Positions 1,063-1,453 of a stretch of 19,146 nt of DNA are shown in pieces (position 1 is the stretch's first letter; each line of letters begins with the position of its first letter). The notes beneath the pieces are model-generated. The model was not told the origin of the DNA. It did not search any database and worked only from the letters and a program-made list of their open reading frames with translations. The stretch comes from a virus: the UHGV virus genome UHGV-1607510. The stretch is one strand, 5' to 3'. The position numbers and the translations under genes are program-made.

Positions 1063-1349
1063 GTCTTACCCCCAATAAGGGGATTTGCTCTATTTAATTA
1101 GGAATAAGGTCGATTACTGATAGAACAAATCCAGGCTACTGTGTTTAGTAATCAGATTTGTTCGTGACCGATATGCACGGGCAAAACGGTATGAGGTTGT
1201 TAGCGCAACCTCCTGCCACCCGATTTCACGAAGCCAGCCATTGAGCTGGTTTTCTTTTATGCAAAGCACACCGCACCGTAGCCACAGCGGATAAGGTGAT
1301 TATTTTGGTCTGTCTGGTATTTGGTTTGATGTGCTTTCAGAAAGGCCGT

Positions 1350-1390
1350 GCTTAAAACGCAAAAAGCCCCGAGCTATTAACTCAGGGCTT
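1350..1390 (-). terminator. tR'-like intrinsic terminator closing a short pR' leader RNA
   Basis: On the minus strand: AAGCCCTGAG-TTAATAG-CTCGGGGCTT (10-bp stem with one G-U pair) followed by TTTTTGCGTTTT. It lies about 60 nt downstream of the predicted pR' start. Confidence 0.6.
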
Positions 1391-1424
1391 TATTTAACGA
1401 GTGCATTTATCCATCGTTGAGTCA

Positions 1425-1453
1425 AATTTACCCAACTTTATTCAAAAAGTCAA
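1425..1453 (-). promoter_or_regulatory. Late promoter pR' (-35 TTGACT, 17-bp spacer, -10 TAAATT) with adjacent Q-utilisation region
   Basis: Minus-strand sequence TTGACTTTTTGAATAAAGTTGGGTAAATTTGACTCAACGATGG closely matches the lambda pR'/qut region as recalled. It sits directly downstream of the Q stop. Confidence 0.65.

Follow-up and report, generated by a model that had tools for sequence, protein, structure and literature searches.

The Q-dependent late cassette of lambdoid phages has been defined by the gene Q, the late promoter pR', a sigma-dependent pause element, a terminator and the late genes (bioRxiv 10.1101/2022.03.25.485794). The same work describes that Q-lambda binds a DNA site and is loaded at the pause with the help of NusA, and that its nozzle at the RNA exit channel stops terminator hairpins. 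In phage lambda, the stretch from +1 to +194 ends in the phage's own tR' hairpin and U-tract. The 6S RNA of lambda is 194 nt long and has a processed form of 121 nt (bioRxiv 10.1101/2024.10.31.621285), and the length of about 194 nt given in the initial annotation of the locus studied here is thereby confirmed from the literature. Short RNAs regulated by antitermination have been reported from the late promoters of lambda, 21, phi80, 82 and P22 (cited in PMC7547250). For P22, the record BK000583 carries a promoter "P late or PR'", a "qut"-like site and the late RNA 5' nucleotide at 37887, which is annotated as "similar to phage lambda P late RNA 5' nt" and is the equivalent of the +1 used below. 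It also carries a terminator at 37917-37945, corresponding to +31 to +59, with the note "t late or tR'; antiterminated by gene 23 protein action"; the annotation of this TPA_inf record is inferential. An earlier record (X78401, 1994) annotates "terminator tR'", and the Emek record has a rho-independent terminator at the same site. In the literature searched, we found no specific description of the late leader of HK022 and HK97.

The window analysed here is UHGV-1607510, a stretch of 19,146 nt whose late-control region lies on the minus strand at the left end. The compact pR'-tR' unit that it carries is the already described P22-type late control region and not a new lambda variant. The gene order around the unit is as follows.

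2856-2116, minus strand: NinI (ORF list)
2119-1496, minus strand: gene Q, late antiterminator of the lambda/P22 "type 1" (207-aa ORF)
1495-1063, minus strand: non-coding Q-S interval of 433 nt (ORF list)
1062-739, minus strand: holin gene S, the first late gene, with the dual start Met-Lys-Met (ORF list; annotations of HK544, HK022 and lambda)
755-279, minus strand: endolysin gene R, after S (ORF list)

The Q protein of the window is identical to lambda Q at 203/207 amino acids (98%) and to P22 gp23 at 199/207 (96%). It is encoded immediately upstream of pR' and matches PF03589, the Q-lambda family, with an E value of 3e-57. The identity to lambda Q and the Pfam match agree with the lambda-type Q that had been proposed. 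The initial annotation also stressed that the short leader occurs "despite" such a Q, but there is no paradox, as lambda Q and P22 gp23 are both about 96-98% identical to the window Q and are reported to be interchangeable (PMC8022706).

The promoter and the first transcribed nucleotides consist of the following elements.

1453-1425, minus strand: pR', with the -35 TTGACT at 1453-1448, a 17-nt spacer and the -10 TAAATT at 1430-1425 (promoter scan; alignment with lambda, HK022 and HK544)
1425-1413, minus strand: -35-like TTGACT at 1425-1420, predicted +1 at 1418 and -10-like pause-inducing AACGAT at +1 to +6 (1418-1413) (lambda alignment)
1412-1396, minus strand: initial transcribed region, +7 to +23 (alignment)

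The combination TTGACT-17 nt-TAAATT was the sole promoter-like match that the promoter scan gave within 1000-1600. The first 100 nt past the Q stop codon showed 94% identity to lambda, and since this match sets the register with lambda 44587, the predicted +1 is 1418. The spacer region 1447-1427 is the stretch annotated as "Qut site" in HK544, a record in which the promoter is described as "promoter, similar to lambda PR' with 2bp mismatch". The spacer of the window differs from that of lambda at two positions; this is the commonest variant and occurs with both leader types among the contigs listed. A sigma-70 promoter with a predicted Q-binding element between -35 and -10 is thus present in the window. 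From -7 to +8, the sequence is the same as that of lambda in the alignment, and a sigma-dependent pause element is predicted from lambda at this place; the roles of the -35-like and pause-inducing elements come from established lambda work and from the cassette study (bioRxiv 10.1101/2022.03.25.485794). The earlier view that the -35 and -10 of pR' and the adjacent sequence are lambda-like is borne out by the scan and by the 94% identity, and the qut and pause elements have been kept as was proposed, with the -35, the Q-binding region, the -10, the -35-like TTGACT and AACGAT all in place.

The initial transcribed region differs from lambda at four positions, +9, +11, +15 and +17 (within 1410-1402). 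The lambda pause site (+16/+17) would map to 1403/1402 in the window. The C16-G17 step of lambda conforms to the consensus pause motif. The window has C16-A17 at this step, so that the G after the lambda pause site is lost, and the predicted pause position or lifetime might differ from that in lambda given this change. A 5' hairpin pairing +1 to +7 with +16 to +23 was predicted for the window leader and is also possible in the lambda sequence; the change of G to A at +17 turns a predicted U6-G17 wobble into U6-A17 in this hairpin.

The terminator follows at a short distance.

1391-1363, minus strand: tR' hairpin, +28 to +56, AAAGCCCUGAGUU-AAU-AGCUCGGGGCUUU (terminator scan; the homologous P22 site is annotated "t late or tR'")
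1365-1354, minus strand: U-tract UUUUUGCGUUUU (read from the sequence)

The hairpin has 13 bp with six G-C pairs, a G+C-rich core of 10 bp and a 3-nt loop, and its dG is -18.6 kcal/mol. The extended stem runs into the U-tract, its last three pairs involving the first Us of UUUUUGCGUUUU, and five Us follow directly after the stem. Among the 31 terminator-like sites of the window (18.1 +/- 3.7 in shuffles), this hairpin was ranked first, which substantiates the strong hairpin that had been noticed close downstream of the predicted start. The stretch from the pause site to the first late gene is thereby predicted to hold an intrinsic terminator. By the usual geometry of intrinsic terminators, release would occur near +58 to +62, which predicts a leader of about 58-62 nt. 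Over the whole window, terminator-like sites were more numerous than in the shuffles, and matches resembling sigma-70 promoters were fewer (12 vs 27.5 +/- 4.9). A search of the whole window at the Rfam gathering thresholds found no family. A permissive search gave the trpB motif and NsiR1 in 1050-1500 with E values of 0.5-0.9, far under the gathering scores, and these were read as chance.

The closest relatives of this region are found in HK phages. The whole interval was 99.8% identical to that of HK544 and 96-98% identical to HK140, HK542, HK106, HK022, mEp234, mEpX1, Sf101 and others, and it was covered to at least 80% in 68 phage records. A 162-nt module within the interval, whose limits are given below, was covered to at least 80% in 88 phage records, HK97 included, and was found at about 76% identity in P22 and many P22-like Salmonella phages. 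HK97, HK022, HK544, HK140, the mEp phages, Sf101 and Emek have the same region as the window. The interval is collinear with that between gene 23 and gene 13 of P22, with 79% identity over positions 2-415. The two share Q/gp23 (96%), the promoter, the pause element, the position of the terminator (+28/+31 to +56/+59) and the length of the interval (433 vs 434 nt). The P22 sequence from +1 to +30 is that of the window, and the hairpins are homologous and unlike only in the loop (UUAAUA in the window, UUUAACC in P22). From +1 to the U-tract, the window is 95% identical to P22, and over the next 133 aligned positions the identity is 65%. The last 171 nt before the holin gene differ, being lambda-like in the window (97.7%).

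By its elements, the region would belong to the lambdoid Q-dependent late cassette of the lambda/P22 "type 1", and homology, collinearity and the position of the terminator identify the unit as a P late/t late module of the P22 type. As a discovery, the compact unit has little value, for it is annotated in P22 and nearly identical in many HK and mEp phages. Two phage records in the comparison, MW057783.1 and LC768498.2, are named "Campylobacter phage CJLB-4" and "Klebsiella phage phiKp_30". The former is 100% identical to lambda across the Q-S interval, has a record of nearly the same length as lambda and looks like lambda DNA under another name, and the latter has the module of the window at 100% identity.

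The phages ST104 and ES18 resemble the window in the homologous flanks of the terminator (GCCCUG...CGGGGCUUUUUGCGUUUU), in a downstream module of the P22 type (89-97%) and in a short distance from promoter to terminator. On the other hand, their Q is 42% identical with a 50-aa insertion, the DNA near the promoter is unlike that of the window, and compensatory changes have altered the upper stem of the hairpin. We had assigned the Q of ST104 and ES18 to a different family; this was corrected, as it still belongs to PF03589 at 42% identity. In a consensus fold of 24 leaders, the terminator stem was intact in 22, HK022 having one mismatch and one contig a 1-nt deletion. From these two cases, maximal hairpin strength does not appear to be strictly maintained. 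The upper-stem change of ST104 and ES18 was the one compensatory change seen in the terminator stem, and support from covariation is thin. Since the stem is nearly invariant, the case for the terminator rests on its conservation and canonical form.

We are highly confident that the unit of the window serves a lambdoid phage as its Q-dependent late-gene switch, in the compact form of P22, HK97 and HK022. We infer promoter activity, the pause, the termination point and the read-through with Q; termination without Q and read-through with Q are supported by analogy and by the annotation of P22. In the proposed mechanism, pR' would be constitutively active, and the sigma-70 holoenzyme would pause soon after the start, where the non-template AACGAT (+1 to +6) would be read as a -10 element. 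Without Q, the polymerase would resume, make the hairpin at +28 to +56 and terminate in the U-tract, giving a leader RNA of about 60 nt and leaving the genes for lysis and morphogenesis silent. With Q, the protein would bind between -35 and -10 and join the paused complex with NusA, forming a nozzle on the RNA exit channel. This loading would precede the synthesis of the hairpin sequence, so that the hairpin would be blocked from forming and transcription would run into S, R, Rz and beyond. A terminator this near would still lie downstream of Q loading, because the RNA at the pause is about 16 nt long and the first nucleotide of the hairpin is +28.

Terminated late leaders are abundant RNAs in lysogens. 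It is conceivable that the leader of about 60 nt, made constitutively in lysogens, also acts in trans as an Hfq-dependent regulatory RNA that tunes host physiology, as StxS does, and we regard this additional role as unlikely. StxS is the pR'-tR' RNA of Stx phages, which binds Hfq, activates RpoS and represses Stx1 (PMC7547250), and the 6S RNA of lambda is bound to Hfq and has targets in RIL-seq (bioRxiv 10.1101/2024.10.31.621285). The predicted RNA of the window consists of a 5' hairpin, an A/U-rich single-stranded linker (UAAAUAAA) and the terminator hairpin with its U-tail; the linker and the U-tailed terminator are suggestive of Hfq binding. The 95% identity to P22 up to the U-tract, next to 65% beyond it, would also suit such a role, but the pause element, the terminator and the boundaries of mosaic recombination suffice to account for the conservation of +1 to +60. 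The leader matched no Rfam family and was not among the ten abundant small RNAs of P22 (PMC13397905). None of these ten lies at +1 to +60 of the late transcript, in a lytic infection in which Q is active and with a library that may disfavour such an RNA.

The comparison with StxS itself shows likeness in kind. StxS is also a short constitutive RNA from an antiterminated late promoter that is ended at tR', and it arises from the switch as a by-product of the same kind (PMC7547250). It differs in that the primary transcript has 258 nt and is cut by RNase E to 74 nt, and in that its function was shown experimentally. In a distant blastn search of the phage collection, no Stx-converting phage occurred by name among the matches listed for the module or in their summary by organism; other parts of the window match many Stx phages. 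The leader of the window did not appear to be homologous to StxS, as judged indirectly from blastn with the module and not with the StxS sequence. The relevance of the region lies in the leader RNAs of antiterminated promoters as a source of regulatory small RNAs, of which StxS, lambda 6S, LPR2 and P22E are examples. The short leader would be a simple and widespread candidate small RNA; about 5% of complete E. coli genomes have the module, as do P22-like Salmonella phages.

Beyond the U-tract, a second structured region adjoins the terminator.

1342-1242, minus strand: homologue of P22E (positions +78 to +178 in the late transcript of P22), with AAAGCACAUC/GGUGUGCUUU as the closing long-range stem (P22E sequence mapped from PMC13397905)

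P22E is a 101-nt small RNA of P22 described in a 2026 study of P22 small RNAs (PMC13397905), and it maps immediately after the P22 tR'. Its closing stem in P22 is AAAGCGCCCUAUC/GGUAGGGCGUUUU, and at four pairs of this stem both bases differ between the P22 type and that of the window. The interior of the domain is 47% identical. We considered whether P22E is the terminated leader itself; this was rejected, as it maps to +78 to +178, past the terminator. The distance from the 3' end of P22E to gene 13 is 48 nt in PMC13397905 and 179 nt by mapping on BK000583. In lambda, the corresponding place after tR' is taken by the RNA LPR2 (probe target +230 to +264), which lies in a similar stem-closed domain. 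On the opposite strand, a terminator-like site at 1230-1253 (+), GAAGCCAGCCATTGAGCTGGTTTTCTTTT, faces against late transcription. Its CCAG/CTGG hairpin and A-tract are kept in P22-type leaders, and the site overlaps the 3' end of the P22E-like domain.

The presence of this domain raises the question of where the block to late transcription lies. It would be very improbable, in our judgement, that the main Q-dependent barrier is found downstream, with the structured domain at +77 to +177 and its closing stem followed by UUUG as one candidate, and that the hairpin at +28 to +56 mainly stabilises or shapes the RNA. Such a barrier would agree with the compensatory changes in this conserved second stem, with the mismatch that HK022 tolerates in its first hairpin, and with the fact that the abundant P22 small RNA of this interval is P22E and not +1 to +60. 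However, the P22E data come from lytic infection, a condition under which read-through is to be expected. The first hairpin shows all the hallmarks of a strong intrinsic terminator (the 10-bp core, the 3-nt loop and the five Us), whereas the loop closed by the downstream stem has about 55 nt and only three Us follow. Moreover, the first hairpin and its U-tract persist where the downstream module is swapped for unrelated sequences.

The relation to lambda was obtained by blastn of the 433-nt interval against the 676-nt Q-S interval of lambda, and it divides the downstream part of the interval into two segments.

1395-1234, minus strand: P22/HK022-type replacement module, 162 nt in place of 405 nt in lambda, holding tR' and the structured downstream domain (blastn breakpoints; P22 collinearity)
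1233-1063, minus strand: lambda-like segment of 171 nt before S, with 97.7% identity to lambda 45015-45185 (blastn, alignment)

Only two collinear matches were obtained, interval positions 1-100 and 263-433, the latter against lambda 506-676. The 162 nt between them showed no similarity by blastn to the 405 nt of lambda (lambda interval 101-505). Thus, the region is not collinear with lambda free of indels, since the two matches flank 162 unrelated nucleotides. The initial annotation had given an interval of about 434 bp, shorter than that of lambda, and this was right (433 vs 676 nt, 243 nt shorter). It had further proposed a deletion or replacement within the late leader. The replacement stands and the simple deletion does not, because the 162 nt between the lambda-like flanks are unrelated to lambda. 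Nor is the unit an oddity derived from lambda, as that account implied; it is an allele of the P22/HK97/HK022 type that is collinear with P22. A simple internal deletion of the lambda late leader that by chance moved a hairpin near pR' would fit the shorter interval and the two lambda-like flanks, but it can practically be discounted, as the 162 nt have no significant match in the lambda interval (best spurious match E 0.035 over 12 nt) and are homologous to P22, HK97 and HK022.

Relative to lambda, the leader from +24 onwards, which in lambda comprises the 6S body, tR' and the LPR2 region, is swapped for a shorter, unrelated module with its own terminator. The window and lambda share Q (98%), the -35, the Q-binding region, the -10, the -35-like TTGACT, AACGAT, the 171 nt upstream of S, S itself and the logic of the switch. 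They differ in the leader, which in lambda has 194 nt and ends at another, longer hairpin, and in the four substitutions between +9 and +17. The lambda interval 101-505, which includes the 6S body, orf-64, tR' and the LPR2 region, has no counterpart in the window. Homology to lambda 6S (44587-44780) stops at +23, the 6S body and the lambda tR' being absent from the window. The probes for 6S and LPR2 are directed at the lambda segment that the window lacks, and the window gave no match to the LPR2 target sequence. It had been considered that LPR2 is retained in the lambda-like part upstream of S; this was discarded, as its probe target (lambda +230 to +264) belongs to the missing segment.

Some smaller features were seen in the part before S. 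Lambda has a hairpin upstream of S, GGCAGGAGGU-loop-ACCUCCUGCC followed by GUUUUG, that is perfect over 10 bp. The version in the window at 1217-1188 (-) has two mismatches (ACCUCAUACC), and those of HK022 and HK544 have one. A 51-aa ORF with a GTG start at 1114-1269 (-) crosses the junction of the P22-type module and the lambda-like segment. It is probably not a gene, given the indels that P22-type sequences have there. HK140, mEp234, ECP1 and Sf101 have a "hypothetical protein" annotated somewhere under the Q-S match, which may differ from this ORF.

The frequency of the two leader types was determined by scanning a viral contig collection with the promoter/pause core GGGTAAATTTGACYCAACGATGG, which gave at least 120 loci and 118 usable contigs. 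Among the 118 contigs listed, the short leader occurred in 63 and that of lambda in 55. A search of 5,426 complete E. coli genomes gave the short module at a coverage of at least 80% in 261 and the lambda middle segment in 217, several of the latter being laboratory strains. Full-length intervals of the lambda type in sequenced phages came mostly from lambda itself and laboratory hybrids. The short leader is at least as common as the long leader of lambda, and with the same Q and qut site at least two leaders are in use that are equally common, the 194-nt 6S leader being one of them.

The same 118 contigs indicate where the two types are joined. The differences at +9, +11, +15 and +17 were perfectly linked to the short leader, while the polymorphisms of the Q-binding spacer and of position -2, 10-40 bp upstream, assorted freely between the leader types. 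This linkage, with the upstream sites unlinked, puts the left end of the module directly behind the pause element. It also follows from the unlinked upstream sites that one Q/qut serves either leader in nature.

At the other side, 46 distinct short-type leaders kept the hairpin and U-tract constant, and the sequence after the U-tract fell into at least five unrelated classes. The short terminator was joined directly to the lambda sequence after tR' in some loci (L017, L102, L115 and L110), where 38 nt (+24 to +61) exactly replace lambda +24 to +194. From these comparisons, the U-tract of the terminator (1365-1354) is taken to be a recombination joint, and the terminator behaves as a small exchangeable cassette. 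The joint at the U-tract was seen in L009, L017, L020, L029, L051, L061, L079, L095, L102, L110 and L115. Another downstream class rejoins lambda further on, at GTGCTGAATTAAGCGAAT. A third arrangement of the Q-S interval (L010 = HK446, H58, H60) has an initial transcribed sequence of the lambda type and covers 76% of the lambda interval, and genes for tRNA-Thr and tRNA-Asn are annotated there in mEp506 and Kapi1.
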